In this document: positions 54,673 through 63,635 of the stretch, one piece after another
Position numbering within the stretch: the first letter of the stretch is position 1
How the letters are laid out: each line of letters opens with the position of its first letter
Assembly (NCBI GenBank): GCA_019637095.1
Contig: JAHBWG010000047.1
Coordinates: forward strand, 6,855 to 70,854
From: Sandaracinaceae bacterium
GTDB lineage: Bacteria > Myxococcota_A > Polyangia > Polyangiales > Sandaracinaceae
Length of the DNA: 64,000 nt
Direction: 5' to 3'
Program-made: the position numbers and the translations under genes
The notes under the pieces: generated by a model
The model's database searches: none
Told to the model about the DNA's origin: nothing
What the model saw: the letters and a program-made list of their open reading frames with translations, nothing else

Positions 54673-56424
54673 TCACCTCCGCTGCGTGACCTCGCGGCCC
54701 TCGACCTTCAGCACGGGCGTGCGGCCGATCCACCACTCGAGGTGCGAGGCGGTGCCGCGCACTCGCAAGCGGCCGCCGTGCTCGCCTTCGAGGTGGCAGA
54801 ACTCGCACAGGGTGATCTGGTTCTCCTCCTCGTCGCCCCCGCCGTGCGCGCGGTAGCGCACGTGGTGGTTGGTGGCGTTGCGCGACTCGCACACCGGCGA
54901 CACGCACCGGTGCCGGTCGCGATCGTGGATGGCCTTCCAGCGGTTCCCCTCGAAGAACCGCTCGCCCCACGCGCTCCAGAAGGCCGCGACGAGGAACGTC
55001 GCGAACGAGCTCGGCGAGCCGGTCGCGCGGTGGACCGCTTCGAGGCGCCGGTAGTCGAGGATCACCTCGTCGCGCGCGCGCACCGCGATGAACCGGTTCC
55101 GAGGCTCCCGGAGACCTACGGACATCTGGACTGCGCCGGCGTCCTCGGCCGCACCTCCGGACATCTGGACCGCGTCATTGCGCACGTCCGAGTCCGCGCC
55201 CGCGTCGCGGGCCGCGCTCGCGAGCAGCTCGCCGCTCAGCACGGCGCGCTCGAAGGCGATGACTGCCTCGAGCTCGTCGTCGTCGGGCGGCGCGAGGTGC
55301 CGCGCGGGCGCCCCTTCGACCCGCGCGAGCAGTTCGACCGCGCGGACCTCCTCGGCGAGGTGCACGTAGGTCCGCGCCGTGGCGCGCGCGACCCACGCAT
55401 CGACGGTGTCGGGGCCAGCCACGCGCGCGATCAGCGACGCTTGCTCGTAGCCCACCTCGCCGTCGCGCACCGCGTCGCCGAGCCGCCCGAGATGCTCCAC
55501 GCGCCGCGCGAGCGTGATGCGCCCGCGAGCGGTCGAGCGCGCGAGCCCGAGCCGCTCGTCGAAGTACGACTGCTCGGACGCGTAGCCCAGCGCCACCCAC
55601 CCGCGCGCGAGCATGAACCGCGAGAGCAGCGCGCCGAGCCAGAGGTCACGGCTCGCGAGCCGCGCGCCCACGTCGCGCACGACCGCGTCGAGCGCCACCG
55701 GATCGTCGGCGTCGGCGGGCTCCTCGACGAACGCGTCGTCCGCGACCGCGCGCCGCGCCGGCACCGGCTCCTCGACGAGCGCGCGCTCCCGGCGCACCGG
55801 CGGCGCGAACCGCTCGTAGTGCGACGCGAGGTCCGGCCGCTTCGCGAAGAGCGTCGAGGCGCCCTCGAAGACCAGGCACTCCAGCCAGTGCCCCGGCTCG
55901 ACGAACCCGCCGTTCACGTGCTCAATGGCTGCCCGCGTCGCCTCCAGCGCGAGCAGCTCGGAGGCCGTCACCGGGAGATCGACGGTGCAGTACGCATCGC
56001 CGCCCTCGTCCTCGGCGACGACCTCGCCCCCGGTCGTGCGCAGCGCCTCGCGCACCTCACGCACCGTCGCGCCCTCGACGGCGGCGAGCAGCTCCGCCTC
56101 GTCGTCGGGGCCGGCGTGGCGCGCGAGCAGCTCGGCCATCGACCAGCCGATGTGCCCCGAGAGGAGCGCGGCTCGGAGCACCGGCCGCTCCTCGAGCCGC
56201 CGCGCGAGCGCGCGCGTGTCACCGCACCACCGCGCGCCCTGCGACACCCGCTCGCGAACGTACATGGCGAACGAGCGGAACCCGAGCTCCTGAAACCCCT
56301 TGCCGAGCCGATGGAGCGCCACCCCCAGCGCCAGCCGGTCACGTACGTTGCACCGCGCGAGGCGCGCGAGCTCTTCGTCGATCGCGCGTAGCTCGTCTTC
56401 GTCGAGAGTGAGCGGTTCGAGCAT
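54673..56424 (-). CDS. HNH endonuclease (DUF222-type N-terminal region)
   Basis: ATG at 56424 (MLEPLTLDEDELRAIDEELARL...). C-terminal HNH: HDRDRHRCVSPVCESRNATNHHVRYRAHGGGDEEENQITLCEFCH. Confidence 0.85.
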   Translation of the reverse strand: MLEPLTLDEDELRAIDEELARLARCNVRDRLALGVALHRLGKGFQELGFRSFAMYVRERVSQGARWCGDTRALARRLEERPVLRAALLSGHIGWSMAELLARHAGPDDEAELLAAVEGATVREVREALRTTGGEVVAEDEGGDAYCTVDLPVTASELLALEATRAAIEHVNGGFVEPGHWLECLVFEGASTLFAKRPDLASHYERFAPPVRRERALVEEPVPARRAVADDAFVEEPADADDPVALDAVVRDVGARLASRDLWLGALLSRFMLARGWVALGYASEQSYFDERLGLARSTARGRITLARRVEHLGRLGDAVRDGEVGYEQASLIARVAGPDTVDAWVARATARTYVHLAEEVRAVELLARVEGAPARHLAPPDDDELEAVIAFERAVLSGELLASAARDAGADSDVRNDAVQMSGGAAEDAGAVQMSVGLREPRNRFIAVRARDEVILDYRRLEAVHRATGSPSSFATFLVAAFWSAWGERFFEGNRWKAIHDRDRHRCVSPVCESRNATNHHVRYRAHGGGDEEENQITLCEFCHLEGEHGGRLRVRGTASHLEWWIGRTPVLKVEGREVTQRR

Positions 56425-56752
56425 CGAGCCCCCCAGGAAACAGGGGTGAAGGTGGCACGAGGCTGAACGGATGTCAAGGCAAGAAAGCGTGCGACGTCGC
56501 GCCGGAACTGGGCCAGTGTCCACACCGGAAGTTCAGCCTTCCCGAGGTGGGGGAGACCAGCGGTCGGCTCGTGACGATCGCAGCGTCGATCGTCCAGTCT
56601 TCGCCGCTTCCGCCGACGAGCCACGCGCCCACCTCGTCTCTCGGTCACGCGCTCTCGCGCAGCGCCGAGCGCGATCAGGTCCTCGGCGCGGTCACCCGCG
56701 CTGCCTCAGTTCGCCGCGCGGGGTGGACTACTTCTCGCGAGCAGACCCCGGG

Positions 56753-57078: not shown

Positions 57079-57939
57079 GTGCACGATCGGCGCTTCCTCT
57101 TGCGGCCGGACGACAAGCTCACCGTGCTCGTGACGTGGCTGCTCGCGACGCTCGCGCCGCTGTTCGACGTCGAGGTCCACGCGATGTCGGTGATGTCGAC
57201 GCACTACCACCTGGTCTGTTCGGTCGGCGACCAGCGCATCAGCGACTTCCTGCGCGACTTCAACGCGTCGCTCGCCAAGGCGGTGAACGTGTTGCGCGGG
57301 GCGCGTCGCGGGATCGTGTGGGAGCCGGGGACGCTGAGCATCGTCGAGCTCAAGACGGTGGACGCGATCATCACCTCGATCGCGTACGCGATCGTGAACC
57401 CCGTCGCGGCGGGCTTGGTCTGGCGTCCCGAGGATTGGCCGGGTCTGAACGTGCTTGCGCACGAGATCGGCCGGCGCGTGCGCGAGGTCGCGGCGCCGGA
57501 CTACTTCTTCCGCACGGGCTTCTGGGACCCGACCGCGGTGTTGGTGACGACGCTGCCCGCGCGCTTGCTCGAGGAGCTCGGCGAGGACGAGGCGCGTCGT
57601 CGGATCGAGGCCGAGGTCGAGCGGCAGCTCCGCGAGGCGCGCGCGCACGTCAAGAGCCAGGGCTGGCAGGTGCTCGGGCCCGTCGCGGCGCGGAACGTGT
57701 CGCCGTTCCGGCGCGCCAAGAGCTGGGAGGACTTCGGCGCGCTCTCGCCGACGTTCGCGGTCGGCGCGGGCAACCACGAGGAGCGCCGGGCGGCGATCGC
57801 CGAGCTGAAGGCGTTCCGCGCCGCGTACCGCGCGGCGTGGATCGGCTACCGCGCCGGCGAGCGCGACGCGGTCTGGCCGTACGGCACGTACCTGATGCGC
57901 GTGCGCCACCGGGTGGAGGTCGAGCCGGCGCCCTCGTAG
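57079..57939 (+). CDS. IS200/RAYT-like HUH Y1 transposase family protein, apparently N-terminally truncated
   Basis: HUH motif MSTHYHLV and Tyr motif IAYAIVNPVAAGLVWRPEDWP. The ORF starts with GTG. The frame is open a further 18 codons upstream (to 57025) with family-like sequence (TFAVCRR) but no start codon. Confidence 0.75.
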   Translation: MHDRRFLLRPDDKLTVLVTWLLATLAPLFDVEVHAMSVMSTHYHLVCSVGDQRISDFLRDFNASLAKAVNVLRGARRGIVWEPGTLSIVELKTVDAIITSIAYAIVNPVAAGLVWRPEDWPGLNVLAHEIGRRVREVAAPDYFFRTGFWDPTAVLVTTLPARLLEELGEDEARRRIEAEVERQLREARAHVKSQGWQVLGPVAARNVSPFRRAKSWEDFGALSPTFAVGAGNHEERRAAIAELKAFRAAYRAAWIGYRAGERDAVWPYGTYLMRVRHRVEVEPAPS

Positions 57940-58130
57940 CGCGGGGCTCGAGAGCGTGAACGAGGCCTGGGACCGCGAGGCTCCCGGGCCTCGGTGCGTC
58001 CGTCGGGCGGCAGCGGGTGCAATCGGACGGTGAGGGCGGCCGACGAGGGCGCGCGGAGCGCTCGGGAGCGCCCCGCGGAGGGCGCGGTGCCCCCAAGCCG
58101 GGCTGGCCGCCGATGCCGCCTGTAGTTTCC

Positions 58131-58279
58131 GCAAGCGAAGTTGTCCACAACCCTGGGTCGGATCGCTCGACCCTCACGACCCTGGGTCGGATCGCTGATC
58201 GCACTCTCCCCCGCGAGCCCATGGGAAAGGTCTACGCGCGCAAGCTAAGTTGTCCACGGCCCTGGGTCGGATCGCTCAC
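58131..58279 (+). repeat. two ~40-bp direct repeats plus a partial third copy
   Basis: GCAAGC[G/T]AAGTTGTCCAC[AA/GG]CCCTGGGTCGGATCGCTC occurs at 58131-58168 and 58240-58277. A partial copy ACCCTGGGTCGGATCGCTGA lies at 58179-58198. The region is non-coding, between the Y1 transposase-like gene and the excisionase-type gene. Confidence 0.85.
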
Positions 58280-58370: not shown

Positions 58371-58571
58371 TCAGCCGCGCGTCGCTCGTCGGATCTCCTC
58401 GCGCAGCTTGAGCACCGCCCGCCGGGTGTAGACCCGGTAGTTGTTGATCGGGTGCCGCCGAGCCTTGAACTTCCCGGAGGCGTCCCACCGGCGCAGCGTC
58501 ATCTCCGAGACCCCGAGCAGCTCGGCCGCGTCCTTGATCGTCACGAGGTCCTTCGCGCTGCTCGCCACCAT
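58371..58571 (-). CDS. excisionase/MerR-type helix-turn-helix DNA-binding protein
   Basis: ATG at 58571. LVTIKDAAELLGVSEMTLRRWDASGKFKARRHPINNYRVYTRRAVLKL is the excisionase-family HTH pattern. The upstream part of track ORF 58371..58736 is implausible. Confidence 0.7.
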   Translation of the reverse strand: MVASSAKDLVTIKDAAELLGVSEMTLRRWDASGKFKARRHPINNYRVYTRRAVLKLREEIRRATRG

Positions 58572-58626
58572 CAGCCTTCTACAACCTTGTACACCCCGCG
58601 CCAAGCGCATAGCCTCGACCCGACGC

Positions 58627-59721
58627 ATGACCGGCGAGGCCGAGTGGAAGACCCGCAAGAAGCGCATCGACCCGAAGCTCGATGGCGCCGGGTGGCCGCG
58701 ACCGCACGGGAAGAGCAGGCCCGCCTCGTTCCGCACCGAAGAAGAGGAGACCGACCACGGCCCCGCGCACTACGCCCTGTGGCTCGGCGAGGAGATGGCG
58801 GGCGTCGTCGAGGCGAAGAAGCTCACCGTAGGGCCGCAGAACGTCTTGACGCAGGCGCAGCGCTACTCGCGCGGCGCGCGGCGGACGAGCAAGACGTACC
58901 CCGACGGGTTCCGGGTGCCCTTCCTCTACTCGACCAACGGCGAGGTGTTCTGGTTCCACGACGTGCGCGACCCGATGAACCGCTCGCGTCGCGTCGCAGG
59001 CTTCCACACGCCCGCGGCGTTCGAGGAGATGCTCGGGCACGACTTCGACGGCGCCTGCGCACGGCTCCTCGCGCGGCCTCACGATCATCCGTGGCTCCGT
59101 CCGTACCAGGCAGCGGCCAACGCGGCGGTCGAGAAGGCGATCAGCGAGCGGAAGCGCAGCCTGCTCGTCGCGATGGCCACTGGTACCGGGAAGACCTTCA
59201 CGCTCGTGAACCAGGTCTACCGGCTCATGAAGGCCGGCGTCGTCCGGCGCGTGCTCTTCCTCGTGGACCGTCGGGCGCTCGCAGCGCAGGCAGTCCGCGC
59301 GTTCGCAGCGTTCGAGGCGGAGCCCGGGAAGAAGTTCGACCAGATTTACGGGCCGCCTCACGGAGGAGTGGCGAATCAGCCAGCGCTGAACGGAGCGAAG
59401 GTGCGCGCACTTCCGCTGCCTCTGCCGCCCGTCGAGGAGCAGGCCGCGATCGTCCAGCGCGTGCGCGGGCTCCTCAGCGTCATCGACGAGCTGGAAGCTC
59501 GTGTCGTGACGGCGACCAAGGTCACGGAGCGCCTCCCCCAGGCGATCCTAGCCAAGGCGTTCTCCGGCCAGCTCGTCCCCACCGAGGCCGAACTTGCCCG
59601 CGCGGAGGGCCGCGAGTTCGAGCCGGCGTCCGCGCTGCTAGCCCGGCTCACGCTCGATGAGGCGCCGGCACCTCGGCCGAGGCGCGGCCGAAGGAAGACG
59701 AAAGCGAAGGCGAGCACGTGA
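58627..59721 (+). pseudogene. in-frame fusion of a type I restriction HsdR N-terminal fragment to an HsdS C-terminal fragment
   Basis: The N-terminal ~240 aa carry the HsdR N-domain and helicase motif I (LRPYQ...LVAMATGTGKTFT...LFLVDRRAL), stopping at ...KFDQIYG. Next comes LPLPPVEEQAAIVQRVRGLLSVIDELE...LPQAILAKAFSGQLVPTE...FEPASALLARL, which is the conserved HsdS C-terminus. Helicase motifs II-VI are absent. Confidence 0.7.
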
Positions 59722-60090: not shown

Positions 60091-60142
60091 CCGACCCCCT
60101 CCTCTGGCAGACCGATCCTCTGACGGGGGGCCATCGCACGGC

Positions 60143-61462
60143 ATGCCGCAACCGCCATCCTCTCTGCAATTGGGAGGATCCTTGCTGACGAAAAGCCCCA
60201 AACAAGCCCGCGGAACGGCACAGCGGCCCGAGTGGTTCGGATACTACGCGGGTTACTCGACGTCGTTCGTCGACGAAGCACTTACGTACCTGAACCTCGA
60301 TCAGGATGCTCGTGTGCTCGACCCATGGAACGGCTCGGGGACGACCACGGACGTTGTCGAACGTCGAGGCTTTCATGGCGTTGGCTACGATCTGAATCCT
60401 GCCGTCGTGATCGTGGCGCGTGCTCGCTTACTCCGTAGTGACGTGCGGCCGAGTCACCGAAGTTTGGGTAAGGTCATCGTTCGCGACAGCGCCAGGCTCG
60501 CGGCGGCCGACTTCCTCGACGGGGAGCCTTTGAGCGCCTGGTTCTCGCCGAAGGCTGCCGCCGCTTTGCGGGGAATTGAACGCGCGATCCAACGCGACCT
60601 TATCTCGCCGACTGAGTACGTTCGCATCGCCGCGAAGGGTTCGCTTTCGGATATCTCACCACTCGCTGCCTACTACTATGTCGCGTTGTTTCGGACAGTG
60701 CGCAGGCTGCTCGCCGGGTTCAAGACGTCAAATCCAACCTGGACGCGGTTCCCTGAGTCGCCTCGCCACCGCTTACGACCATCGACTCAAGTCATCCACG
60801 CGGCTTTTGACGAGGAGGTCGAGCGAATGTTCATGGGCATAGAGGAGGCGCCTGCGGTGACTTCTTCCGCGCAGGTTGACCTCGGGGACTCGACGTCGAT
60901 CAAACTCGGACGCCATGAGGTGGATGCTGTCGTCTCATCACCTCCGTACTGCACTCGCATTGACTACGCGGTATCGATGCGCCCCGAACTCGCGGTCCTC
61001 GGCATGACCGCGCTCGAGTTCCGGGCGCTGCGGTTGTCGATGCTGGGATGCACAATTCTCGGGGCCGCGAGCACGTCCACGGCGGTTCCCGACGATTGGG
61101 GCGCCTCATGCGCTCAATTGCTTGACGGGATCCGGCGGCATCCTTCCCACGGCTCAGCGAGTTACTACTACCCGACACATGTGAACTACTTCGCTTCTTT
61201 GTTTGCGTCGTATGCGGAGATCGCGCGTGTCCTACGGCCTGGTGGTCGTGCCATCCTGGTTGTTCAGGACTCTTACTACAAGGAGCTTCATACGGACCTC
61301 CAGGCCGTTACGAGTCAGATGTGTCAGGGCTTGGGATTGACGCTGGAGTTGCGGCGAGACTACTCGTCGAGGAACACAAAGGCCGCCGTCAACACCCGAC
61401 GCCTGAAATACCGCAACACCGCGGACGCCACTGAGAGCGTCCTGGTTTTTTCTCGAAGCTGA
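60143..61462 (+). CDS. DNA methyltransferase (N6_N4_Mtase-like; motif I N-terminal, SPPY motif IV distal)
   Basis: VLDPWNGSGTT (AdoMet motif I) lies near the N-terminus. VVSSPPYCTRIDY (motif IV) lies ~230 aa later. RVLRPGGRAILVVQD follows. The start is uncertain (ATG 60143; the frame is open further upstream). Lower G+C than the core. Confidence 0.85.
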   Translation: MPQPPSSLQLGGSLLTKSPKQARGTAQRPEWFGYYAGYSTSFVDEALTYLNLDQDARVLDPWNGSGTTTDVVERRGFHGVGYDLNPAVVIVARARLLRSDVRPSHRSLGKVIVRDSARLAAADFLDGEPLSAWFSPKAAAALRGIERAIQRDLISPTEYVRIAAKGSLSDISPLAAYYYVALFRTVRRLLAGFKTSNPTWTRFPESPRHRLRPSTQVIHAAFDEEVERMFMGIEEAPAVTSSAQVDLGDSTSIKLGRHEVDAVVSSPPYCTRIDYAVSMRPELAVLGMTALEFRALRLSMLGCTILGAASTSTAVPDDWGASCAQLLDGIRRHPSHGSASYYYPTHVNYFASLFASYAEIARVLRPGGRAILVVQDSYYKELHTDLQAVTSQMCQGLGLTLELRRDYSSRNTKAAVNTRRLKYRNTADATESVLVFSRS

Positions 61463-61478
61463 CGAGAGGGGTCGCACC

Positions 61479-62648
61479 ATGCCTACGGATGATTCGGGTG
61501 AGGAGGAGCTGGAATCGGAGGGCCTCGACGTCGGCGATGAGCCCGAACCGTTCGCATCTGTCGAGGAGAAGTACCGCAAGCAGATGCGTCAGATTTTTCC
61601 TCAGAAGATCGAGCTTCCCATATCGACGATTTCAGACATGATCGCCCGGCAGATGAATCTTAGTCCCGACTTCCAACGTCGCGGGATCTGGACGAACGAA
61701 CGGCGCTCACGTTTCATCGAGTCTATCATCATGAACGTACCGATTCCGCCTGTCTTCCTCGGTGAGGATGACTACGGAAAGTACGTTGTGCTCGACGGTC
61801 GTCAGCGGCTCACAGCGATCAACGAATTCTTGGCAAACAACTACGCCCTCGAAAAACTAAGGGTGTGGTCAGAGTTCAATGGGAAACGATTCAACGACCT
61901 AAAAAGGGATGGTCTTGAGACGACGTTTACCAGGCGTTTCGTTCCAGCCGTGTTGATTCTCAAGGAGTCCTCTGTCGAGGTCAAGTATGACGTCTTTGAT
62001 CGGCTGAACACAGGTGGCGTAATCGCGACCGCAATGGAGATTCGCAACGCGGTTAGTCGAGGCGGATTCACCGACTTGCTGACACCTCTCTCAGAGAACC
62101 AGACGTTTCGACGTCTTTGGGATATCCCAGATGACAAACACCTTCGAGAAGAGAATAAGGTCTACAACCGAATGGAAGACAAGGAGCTTGTGCTTCGGTT
62201 CTTCGCCTTACAGCAGCCCCAGGCGTACCGGGACTTCTCGGGTACGTTCCGAGACTACCTGACCAAGGTTCTTGAGAGCAGGAACGCCGCCTATCGGGAC
62301 AAGGCTGCGGCCAGCGGTCTCGCCCAGAGAGATCAAGCCGTGTTCGAGCGTGCAGTGAATAACTCGTTCCGTGTCTTCGGTGCCGATGCGTTTCGTAAGC
62401 CTACTGTGGACGGCAGGAGGACGGTGAAGTCTGCGCCTCTGGCTGACGCCTTGATGCACGCGCTATCGGATGTCGATACCGCGAGGATCACCGACTCTGT
62501 GGCGGGCGAGATCCGCGATAAGATTCGTGACCTTTGCCTCAACGATAACGACTTCAAGTCGGCCATCGGTCGCGGGACAAATGGCCGGAGTGCGACTGAG
62601 TTGCGCCTCAAGCGTGCCGCGGACGCGGTGGGCGCGGCGCTGAAGTGA
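61479..62648 (+). CDS. DUF262 (ParB/Srx-like, GmrSD N-terminal type) domain protein without a DUF1524/HNH nuclease domain
   Basis: FQRRGIWTNERRSRFIESIIMNVPIPPVFL...YVVLDGRQRLTAINEFL is the DUF262 signature (DGQQR variant DGRQR). The helical C-terminal half has no His-Me finger motif. Starts 16 nt after the methyltransferase stop. Confidence 0.9.
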   Translation: MPTDDSGEEELESEGLDVGDEPEPFASVEEKYRKQMRQIFPQKIELPISTISDMIARQMNLSPDFQRRGIWTNERRSRFIESIIMNVPIPPVFLGEDDYGKYVVLDGRQRLTAINEFLANNYALEKLRVWSEFNGKRFNDLKRDGLETTFTRRFVPAVLILKESSVEVKYDVFDRLNTGGVIATAMEIRNAVSRGGFTDLLTPLSENQTFRRLWDIPDDKHLREENKVYNRMEDKELVLRFFALQQPQAYRDFSGTFRDYLTKVLESRNAAYRDKAAASGLAQRDQAVFERAVNNSFRVFGADAFRKPTVDGRRTVKSAPLADALMHALSDVDTARITDSVAGEIRDKIRDLCLNDNDFKSAIGRGTNGRSATELRLKRAADAVGAALK

Positions 62649-63635
62649 GTGGGGTCGCCGGGAATGCAGGTCGTACTCCAGGATTTCCGCGAGGCGCTAG
62701 GTCGCATCCGCGACGTTGCCGACAGCATATTGGCCGAAGCACCGCTCGCGCTCGGCGATCCGTCAGTGCTCCGCCGCCATGAGACTATCCAGTTTGCCTC
62801 CACGGTCATTCTCAGCGGGTACTTCGAGTCATTCCTGAGAGACCTTGCTCGCGCCTACATCCGCGACATCTGCGGGCTTGGTGTGCCGTTTGCTGGACTA
62901 CCCAAGGTGGTTCGCTACAGCCATTTCGAGCATGGCGGCAACGTACTCGCCCACGTCGCCAGGGCAGAGAAGAAGGGTGAACCCCCTCGGTTTCCCACTA
63001 GTGCTACCGATCTCGCAGCCCGCCTGCACTCGGTCGATCATAGCGTTCCCTACAGCCTTGTCTGGGAAGCATTTGCCGAGACGGGCGCGAACCCTGGACC
63101 ACAGGTCATAGCTGAGTACCTGCGTCGTATGGGTGTTGAGAAGGCATGGCCGACAGTAGGAGGCAAGACTGCTGCTATCGCGGCACATCAGACCGAGACT
63201 TGGCTGGTCGCGAACCTTCGTTCGTTTATCGGCGTCCGGAATGAGTGTGCACATGCGGGCGCGGCAAGTGTTCAGGTTCTGCCTTCTGATCTTAGGAACT
63301 ACTGTGATCTCTTTGAGGCGCTCGCCACGGCCATGGTCGGGGTGCTGGAAGACACGCGGCAGGCGATCATACCCGCCGGTGGGGGTTCCCTGCCTCCGTC
63401 GGCGGTTGGCCCCTCCGGGTCGCAGGTGGCGCCTCCGCCGACGAGTTCGCCAACAGCGGCGGACGCGCCAACGGCCGATACGGCGGGCCTACAAACGCCA
63501 CAGCAGGCCGCCCCAACAACCGCCGGTGCCCTTGCGTCGTCGGCGACTGGGACGCCATCAGCGACGGCACCGGCAGCCGCGCCTTCGCCCCCGCCGCCGG
63601 CAGACTCCACAGCAGGCGATGGCCAAGGTCCGTGA
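62649..63635 (+). CDS. HEPN-domain protein (MAE_28990/RiboL-PSP-like) with Pro/Ala/Thr-rich C-terminal tail
   Basis: Rx4H motif in FIGVRNECAHAG within an all-helical ~235-aa domain (SGYFESFLRDLARAYIRD...). GTG at 62649 abuts the DUF262 stop, with an alternative ATG at 62664. The last ~90 aa are low-complexity. Confidence 0.8.
   Translation: MGSPGMQVVLQDFREALGRIRDVADSILAEAPLALGDPSVLRRHETIQFASTVILSGYFESFLRDLARAYIRDICGLGVPFAGLPKVVRYSHFEHGGNVLAHVARAEKKGEPPRFPTSATDLAARLHSVDHSVPYSLVWEAFAETGANPGPQVIAEYLRRMGVEKAWPTVGGKTAAIAAHQTETWLVANLRSFIGVRNECAHAGAASVQVLPSDLRNYCDLFEALATAMVGVLEDTRQAIIPAGGGSLPPSAVGPSGSQVAPPPTSSPTAADAPTADTAGLQTPQQAAPTTAGALASSATGTPSATAPAAAPSPPPPADSTAGDGQGP

Follow-up and report, generated by a model that had tools for sequence, protein, structure and literature searches.

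A methyltransferase-coupled DUF262–HEPN operon in a Sandaracinaceae genome, a probable variant of PD-T4-2-type defence pairs

The window analysed here is a 64,000-nt stretch of a 71-kb contig from a Sandaracinaceae (Myxococcota) metagenome-assembled genome (MAG), and near its right-hand end three adjacent genes encode a DNA amino-methyltransferase, a nuclease-less DUF262 protein and a HEPN protein of the RiboL-PSP/MAE_28990 group. The data indicate that this trio is, very probably, an intact and horizontally acquired copy of a widespread three-gene operon of defence type, built around a DUF262–HEPN pair that resembles the validated Escherichia coli defence system PD-T4-2. A mechanism with restriction-modification (R-M)-like logic and an RNA-level output, every functional step of which is inferred, is given a probability of about 0.5.

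The nearest relative of the trio lies on a metagenome contig (L001) that carries the same three genes in the same order, with 63-84% identity across the three proteins. Nucleotide similarity between the two (blastn, 72% identity) is confined to window positions 60198-63337, which identifies the trio as the shared unit, and the L001 trio is likewise lower in G+C than its own flanks. When species-representative genomes were scanned with the HEPN alignment, 23 loci emerged, spread over Myxococcota, Acidobacteriota, Alpha-, Beta- and Gammaproteobacteria, Verrucomicrobiota and Eremiobacterota-type MAGs; wherever such a locus is intact, the DUF262 gene directly precedes the HEPN gene. Metagenomes searched with the DUF262 alignment contributed 80 more loci, and after duplicate removal the pooled set comprised ~105 unique loci from at least six phyla. 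These were divided into the window's own close clade, in which DUF262 is at least 44% identical to that of the window, and distant pairs at 32-40% identity; 72 of the 85 close-clade loci and 17 of the 20 distant ones have a HEPN gene after DUF262, and most of the misses fall at contig ends. Look-ups seeded with DUF262 returned DUF262, HEPN and methyltransferase together in all three cases, and those seeded with the family of the window methyltransferase (41-42% identity) found an adjacent DUF262 gene in three of three and a Pfam-recognised HEPN gene next to it in two; the hosts include Xanthomonas sacchari, Ralstonia edaphis, Cytophagales and Termitidicoccus. Across 62 loci the pairwise distances of DUF262 and HEPN are correlated (r = 0.89) and the pair co-evolves, with HEPN changing fastest (mean distance 0.62), followed by the DUF262 C-domain (0.53) and N-domain (0.28). 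The three genes are therefore a conserved unit seen by several independent searches. In the third methyltransferase-seeded case, locus L119 (3273-6380), the methyltransferase gene is divergent from a 350-aa DUF262 gene and the next gene encodes a 218-aa product with no Pfam or PADLOC match, which may be a different or highly diverged effector in place of HEPN.

Linkage to methylation was scored where a locus had 1.5 kb or more of sequence on each side, counting any amino-methyltransferase within 1.5 kb. By this measure 38 of 39 close-clade loci are methyltransferase-linked, against none of the six scorable distant pairs, which come from a Klebsiella conjugative plasmid and metagenome contigs; a conserved neighbourhood of this kind had been predicted by the first-pass annotation, made from the DNA letters alone, and the three methyltransferase-seeded look-ups that each led to DUF262 agree with it. 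Neighbour joining places the methylase-free pairs at the base of the tree, and the methylase-linked ones form a single monophyletic clade. The sole close-clade exception (L026) is a decayed locus with fragmented DUF262 and HEPN genes, where beta-methyltransferase-like ORF (open reading frame) fragments alone remain, ~2 kb from the pair, so that among the scored loci of the window's clade no intact DUF262–HEPN pair was found without a methyltransferase. At a further locus (L017) the methyltransferase gene persists next to a decayed pair.

The methyltransferase itself is not always the same. In 26 loci, including the window, the partner is the alpha-like family of the window enzyme with no endonuclease (type A), usually directly upstream of DUF262, its end overlapping the DUF262 start or falling within a few bases of it. 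In ~40 loci it is a beta-class N6_N4 methyltransferase, and a gene of ~250 aa lies 3-8 bp from it; this gene encodes an XhoI-family endonuclease in 26-27 loci (type B; Pfam 1e-78, PADLOC REase_II 1.6e-85), and the remaining ~250-aa genes belong to two other families with no Pfam match. On one viral contig the pair is preceded by two methyltransferases, one alpha-like and one beta-class. Agreement between partner type and the DUF262 tree is partial (nearest-neighbour concordance 0.70, compared with 0.30 in shuffles, maximum 0.55), and therefore partners have been exchanged several times: the pair is linked to methylation, not to one methyltransferase family. In Termitidicoccus mucosus (CP109796.1; L117, 5001-10023) one methyltransferase of the window's family is followed by two tandem DUF262–HEPN pairs, both of which it appears to serve, and the array adjoins an integrase-like gene (faint Phage_integrase match) and an HTH_17 gene. 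The P2-like coliphage Peduovirus P24B2 (NC_049387.1; L035, 140-3041) carries a distant DUF262 and MAE_28990-type HEPN pair at its right end, ~300 bp from an opposite-strand phage DNA methyltransferase gene, and the PADLOC PD-T4-2_B model misses its HEPN protein.

Within the window the trio consists of three intact, co-directional ORFs (window ORF list; Table 1), packed on one strand as the first-pass annotation had described. The methyltransferase TGA (61460-61462) and the DUF262 ATG (61479) are separated by a 16-nt gap that contains the Shine-Dalgarno-like stretch GAGAGGGG, and the DUF262 stop TGA (62646-62648) abuts a GTG at 62649. The HEPN gene had been started at this GTG, and the abutment stands, but its true start is most likely ATG 62664, from which homologues align and at which the NCBI model (323 aa) begins; the methyltransferase, for its part, probably starts at TTG 60182 (NCBI model, 426 aa). 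The segment had also been called compositionally foreign. Its G+C is 0.588, compared with a mean of 0.743 (standard deviation 0.027) in 1-kb windows of the host (z = -5.7), the lowest-G+C window of the trio reaches z = -7.3, and in a 200-bp scan of the composition profile G+C falls at ~60100 and recovers at ~63300; the earlier hand counts on single lines (0.50, 0.45 and 0.75) proved exact. A terminator-like hairpin, GGACGC...GCGTCC and then TGGTTTTTTC, lies at 61423-61451 (plus strand) within the final methyltransferase codons, 28 nt ahead of the DUF262 start, and could uncouple methylase expression from the DUF262–HEPN pair. A promoter and terminator scan of the module in this Myxococcota host gave little of note.

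Profile searches bore out all three of the earlier domain calls, each above the Pfam gathering score. The methyltransferase matches Pfam N6_N4_Mtase (2.4e-9, via the motif I region only) and PADLOC MTase_II (1.4e-21). Motif I (LDPWNGSGTT) is at residue 59, SNPTW at residue 196 and motif IV (SPPYCTRIDY) at residue 266; the order, motif I before motif IV with ~200 aa between them, is the alpha-like permutation. That this reverses the usual beta order had been noticed before, with a spacing of ~230 aa that is corrected here to 207 aa. Twelve homologues from related loci align over their full length and have YYAG[FY]S, LDPWNGSGTT, SNPTW, SPPYCTRIDY and VVQDSYYKE in common, the catalytic motifs LDPWNGSGTT and SPPY being kept in all 13 sequences when the window enzyme is included. 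SPPY is not diagnostic for N6-methyladenine as opposed to N4-methylcytosine; the XhoI-type beta enzymes of related loci have it too. The family is large (3247 matches at E<=1e-10). A cognate restriction endonuclease gene was sought next to the methyltransferase in the ORF list and with Pfam and none was found in the window module, as had been reported. An apparent 1056-aa methyltransferase fusion at another locus (L020) was rejected as an over-long ORF in high-G+C DNA.

The DUF262 protein has a single Pfam domain, GmrSD_N (2.1e-25, aa 56-191), with DGRQRLT at residue 106, and a Pfam search of it and of the neighbouring genes found no DUF1524/GmrSD_C, in keeping with the earlier statement that it lacks a nuclease half. 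Its best PADLOC match is NsnA of Menshen (8.8e-75, profile positions 41-379 of 385, near full length), and its match to PD-T4-2_A (PDLC04027; 1.7e-32) is far weaker. Across 30 DUF262 sequences the three motifs that the Menshen paper describes for this domain, QRxxxW, DGxQR and FxxxN, do not vary; the DUF262 profile reaches BrxU (7p9k) weakly (0.002), and the family exceeds 2000 matches at E<=1e-10. In the AlphaFold2 (AF2) model the C-terminal half is confident and the N-terminal half poor (pLDDT 74), and with the latter poorly modelled a Foldseek search of the PDB gave nothing significant. By analogy with SspE, the C-terminal helical domain may be of DNA-binding type. PADLOC model PDLC03418 ('Type II restriction enzyme'/REase_II, 372 positions) also matches the DUF262 domain (9e-8), and the set behind that model therefore evidently includes a DUF262-like sequence.

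The third protein matches Pfam HEPN_RiboL-PSP (5.5e-9) and, below that, HEPN_MAE_28990 (0.025), and its relatives score strongly on both models (e.g. 1.4e-32 and 1.5e-30). The Rx4H motif already recognised in the first-pass annotation is RNECAH at residue 197, where R197, N198 and C200 never vary in 18 homologues and E199, A201 and H202 are at least 90% conserved. The AF2 model is all-alpha (pLDDT 93.8) and its best match in BFVD is a phage MAE-28990/MAE-18760-like HEPN protein (probability 1.0, TM-score 0.55); against the PDB Foldseek found nothing significant, the best meaningful entry being HepT (6m6u; probability ~0.6, TM-score 0.47). Comparison of the HEPN alignment with single phage and plasmid HEPN partners by hhalign was weak or uninformative (E 0.044 and 3e-4). 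At E<=1e-3 the HEPN profile retrieved 1123 clusters of representatives. The HEPN domain ends at ~63370. The remaining ~88 aa (63372-63635) are A/P/S/T/G-rich and of low complexity, and because this tail has host-like G+C (0.746) and lies outside the segment common to L001, it is probably read-through into flanking DNA past the original end of the gene, after insertion.

Table 1. Coordinates of the acquired segment and its three genes in the window
Feature	Position	Strand	Basis
Low-G+C (0.59), 3.2-kb horizontally acquired segment with three genes	60100..63340		Composition profile and blastn against L001
DNA amino-methyltransferase, alpha-like motif order	60143..61462	+	Pfam N6_N4_Mtase, PADLOC MTase_II, homologue alignment
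Nuclease-less DUF262 protein (ParB-fold NTPase) with C-terminal helical domain, NsnA-like	61479..62648	+	Pfam GmrSD_N, PADLOC NsnA
HEPN RNase-type protein, RiboL-PSP/MAE_28990 group	62649..63635	+	Pfam, motif conservation, AF2, BFVD

Clade-specific and near-obligate linkage, indifference to the methyltransferase family, the lack of any intact methyltransferase-less pair in the clade and the methyltransferase that survives beside a decayed pair together make up the pattern expected if methylation protects the host from the pair. As this pattern fits methylation-based self-protection, a model in which DUF262 senses unmethylated DNA and activates HEPN is favoured. The methyltransferase would mark the host genome, and the DUF262 protein would bind DNA and, as SspE, BrxU and GmrSD do, use the binding or hydrolysis of nucleoside triphosphate (NTP) to read the modification of its target. 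Unmethylated incoming phage or plasmid DNA would then cause DUF262 to activate its HEPN partner, which would cleave RNA and lead to growth arrest or aborted infection. DUF262 is the NTPase or sensor in SspE and GmrSD according to the literature, and the Menshen paper raises the idea that ParB-DUF262 may target unmodified DNA where a methylase alone is nearby. The earlier reading of the trio as sensor, RNase effector and protective methylase is thus plausible and fits the comparative data. We further suggest, tentatively and with rather less confidence, that the family could represent a distinct class of R-M-like immunity, in which DUF262 would read unmethylated DNA and HEPN would respond by cutting RNA in place of DNA; the pair would then be a portable 'plug-in' for which unrelated methyltransferases (alpha-like orphan, XhoI-type and other type II) could each do the self-marking. 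If the methyltransferase is the self-marking arm, epigenetic self/non-self discrimination would be tied to an abortive RNA-level response, and the DUF262 sensor would, if this holds true, be of reversed polarity, blocked by modification instead of dependent on it.

Several points weigh against this mechanism. The DUF262 sensors of GmrSD, BrxU, SspE and probably Dazbog respond to modified, not unmodified, DNA, and PD-T4-2 works without any methyltransferase. A sequence-specific sensor would need re-tuning at each methyltransferase swap, and despite those swaps DUF262 shows the strongest conservation within the trio (N-domain mean distance 0.28). No significant structural match in the PDB was obtained for the DUF262 or the HEPN protein, so that the HEPN fold and the DNA-binding role of the DUF262 C-domain rest on sequence profiles and analogy. 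The searched literature contains no experiment on the DUF262–HEPN–methyltransferase family and no paper that names or dissects the three-gene system.

The first two of these points lead towards a stand-alone module of PD-T4-2-like or type IV-like character, in which DUF262 would sense modified or phage-specific DNA and act through HEPN, and the methyltransferase would have been transferred alongside as a neighbour, whether as an orphan or as a component of some other R-M system. PD-T4-2 guards E. coli from T4 as a 1.8-kb clone without a methylase, the pair on the Klebsiella plasmid and those at distant metagenome loci have no methyltransferase, and the characterised DUF262 proteins sense modified DNA. 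A bystander methyltransferase, however, is difficult to square with linkage that is clade-specific (38/39 versus 0/6), with type A methyltransferase genes that overlap or end within a few bases of the DUF262 start (16 nt before it in the window), with a dedicated methyltransferase family that adjoins DUF262 in three of three look-ups, or with a unit common to the window and L001 that is exactly three genes, and this explanation is considered unlikely. Equally doubtful is a guard arrangement like that of PrrC and EcoprrI, where the methyltransferase or R-M proteins would keep the DUF262–HEPN pair latent until a phage anti-restriction factor released it as a second line of defence. Anantharaman et al. 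2013 put forward such logic for HEPN genes that sit within R-M operons, and a complete type II R-M system does stand beside the pair in many related loci; but at least four unrelated methyltransferase or R-M configurations have been swapped repeatedly, a specific protein-protein latch is hard to reconcile with partners so unrelated and so often exchanged, and in the window, as in 25 other loci, there is no endonuclease that could be guarded.

The division of labour between the proteins could also differ from the favoured model of DUF262 sensing and HEPN cleavage. DUF262 might itself be the DNA-cutting or nicking restriction subunit, a ParB-fold nuclease, of a type II-like R-M system formed with the methyltransferase, HEPN being an accessory or back-up toxin, as the match to the PADLOC REase_II model PDLC03418 (9e-8) and the treatment of ParB as a DNase domain by Anantharaman 2013 would allow. 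It is DUF1524, not DUF262, that cuts in GmrSD, BrxU and SspE, however; what is conserved here is the NTP-binding motif set QRxxxW / DGxQR / FxxxN, and HEPN is strictly kept as a partner and evolves in step with DUF262, which makes a nuclease role for DUF262 quite improbable. Least credible is an RNA-level toxin-antidote, with the methyltransferase modifying an RNA target (e.g. a tRNA or rRNA base) and so shielding it from the HEPN RNase: the window enzyme weakly matches RNA-methyltransferase families (UPF0020/Trm11-like, 0.0036) and a few sources label its homologues 'tRNA G10 N-methylase Trm11', yet its best matches are the DNA methylase models N6_N4_Mtase and PADLOC MTase_II (1e-21), and around half of the related loci link the pair to a bona fide type II R-M DNA methyltransferase and XhoI-family endonuclease.

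The module lies on the margin of a decayed mobile or defence region. Immediately upstream, the ORF at 58441-59721 (plus strand) is chimeric, with residues ~68-301 matching type I HsdR (ResIII 7e-18; PADLOC REase_I 2e-26) and residues ~309-423 matching the C-terminal part of type I HsdS specificity subunits (7.8e-23), and it resembles what a deletion would leave of a type I R-M system by fusing its genes. Its start is overlapped on the opposite strand by a gene for a small MerR/HTH_17 excisionase-like protein (58371-58736, minus strand; PADLOC mad1 2.4e-14). Further upstream, a 286-aa ORF (57079-57939, plus strand) without a Pfam match at E<=0.01 contains an 'HYHLV' motif that recalls IS200/REP-associated Y1 transposases, and ~200 bp 3' of it, at 58130-58277, a 39-nt repeat is present three times (CGCAAGCGAAGTTGTCCACAACCCTGGGTCGGATCGCTC; copies 92% and 64% identical to the first). 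A 616-aa protein with a C-terminal HNH motif (54673-56523, minus strand; Pfam HNH 1.9e-4) is encoded at the boundary where G+C begins to drop from ~0.75 to ~0.70. No tRNA gene and no convincing flanking direct repeats that would indicate attachment (att) sites were found around the module.

Several known systems share parts of this organisation. The window methyltransferase has catalytic motifs I and IV like those of type II R-M systems, but it has no adjacent endonuclease, which the type B relatives do have in the form of XhoI-family enzymes. As with PrrC–EcoprrI, a HEPN RNase-type gene is genetically tied to DNA modification or restriction genes. PrrC is an ABC-type NTPase fused to HEPN and embedded in a type I R-M system, whereas the NTPase of the window is a separate ParB-fold protein and the partners in its family are type II-like or orphan methyltransferases. 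GmrSD, BrxU and SspE, DUF262–DUF1524 enzymes of type IV and phosphorothioate-sensing kinds, have the same N-terminal DUF262 NTPase domain with DGxQR, to which the weak profile match to BrxU (7p9k, 0.002) also attests; the window, however, lacks the DUF1524 His-Me nuclease, so that a GmrSD-type enzyme is excluded, its effector is separately encoded and of RNase type, and it is linked to a host methyltransferase for which a modification-dependent enzyme would have no need. Menshen (NsnA-NsnB-NsnC; Millman 2022; Li et al. 2025) is closer as far as DUF262 is concerned, given the 8.8e-75 match to NsnA and a common layout of DUF262 followed by a C-terminal helical (ParBDB-type) domain, and ~28% of Menshen loci adjoin R-M or methylase genes according to the Menshen paper. 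Nevertheless, the window has neither NsnB (ABC ATPase/DUF3696) nor NsnC (inactive-PIN and nuclease effector), the low-G+C module ends inside the HEPN ORF at the end of the HEPN domain (~63340) with no NsnC-like third gene, NsnB/NsnC-like genes are not among the conserved neighbours in the ~105 related loci, and the downstream effector is HEPN, a term absent from the Menshen paper. Identity with Menshen was rejected on the absence of NsnB and NsnC in the window and all related loci, even though NsnA is the best PADLOC match.

The association of DUF262/ParB, HEPN and methylase genes is not new. HEPN–ParB–DNA methylase operons were listed by Anantharaman et al. 2013 for the RiboL-PSP-HEPN and MAE_28990 families, to which the window HEPN protein belongs with its conserved Rx4-6H motif, and the window operon similarly holds ParB-fold and DNA methylase genes, contiguous and on one strand. 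That listing is a comparative-genomics table entry, without a name, an experiment or a methyltransferase type, and it does not separate methylase-linked from methylase-free clades; to judge from the searched literature, this clade split and the interchangeable methyltransferase partners are new. The first-pass annotation could not place the trio near any named system and in this it overstated the novelty, because both these operons and the PD-T4-2 pair, whose validated architecture is also DUF262 plus HEPN, were already known. The family has probably been missed in defence-system censuses, because the PADLOC v2 models would not assemble any system from it.

PD-T4-2 from E. coli ECOR65 is described as 'DUF262, HEPN' and is active against T4 both natively and when cloned (Vassallo et al. 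2022, Table S1), the published clone being 1.8 kb with two ORFs and no methyltransferase (Vassallo et al. 2022), and a 2023 review places PF18735 (RiboL-PSP HEPN) under it. DARNA was considered as a follow-up of PD-T4-2 and rejected, since DARNA is PD-T7-3. The comparison was made through the PADLOC PD-T4-2_A and PD-T4-2_B profiles, not the ECOR65 sequences (QOYX01000002, RCO39066.1). The window, too, has a nuclease-less DUF262 gene followed by an adjacent, co-directional HEPN gene (GmrSD_N, HEPN_RiboL-PSP), and its DUF262 protein matches PD-T4-2_A at 1.7e-32. On the other hand, the short B model (168 positions) has no match to the window HEPN protein at E<=1, and among relatives it matches only 1 of 40 distant HEPN family members (0.0013) and the homologue at locus L029 (0.003) in the Rx4H region only; moreover, the PD-T4-2 clone is self-sufficient and the clade of the window is methyltransferase-linked in 38 of 39 loci. 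The window system is classed as one that works like PD-T4-2 without being a member of it. The DUF262–HEPN–methyltransferase family offers a route to the mechanism of PD-T4-2, a validated but unexplained system, and the most apt description of the window trio is a PD-T4-2-type DUF262–HEPN pair in methyltransferase-coupled form, within a large, cross-phylum and uncharacterised family.

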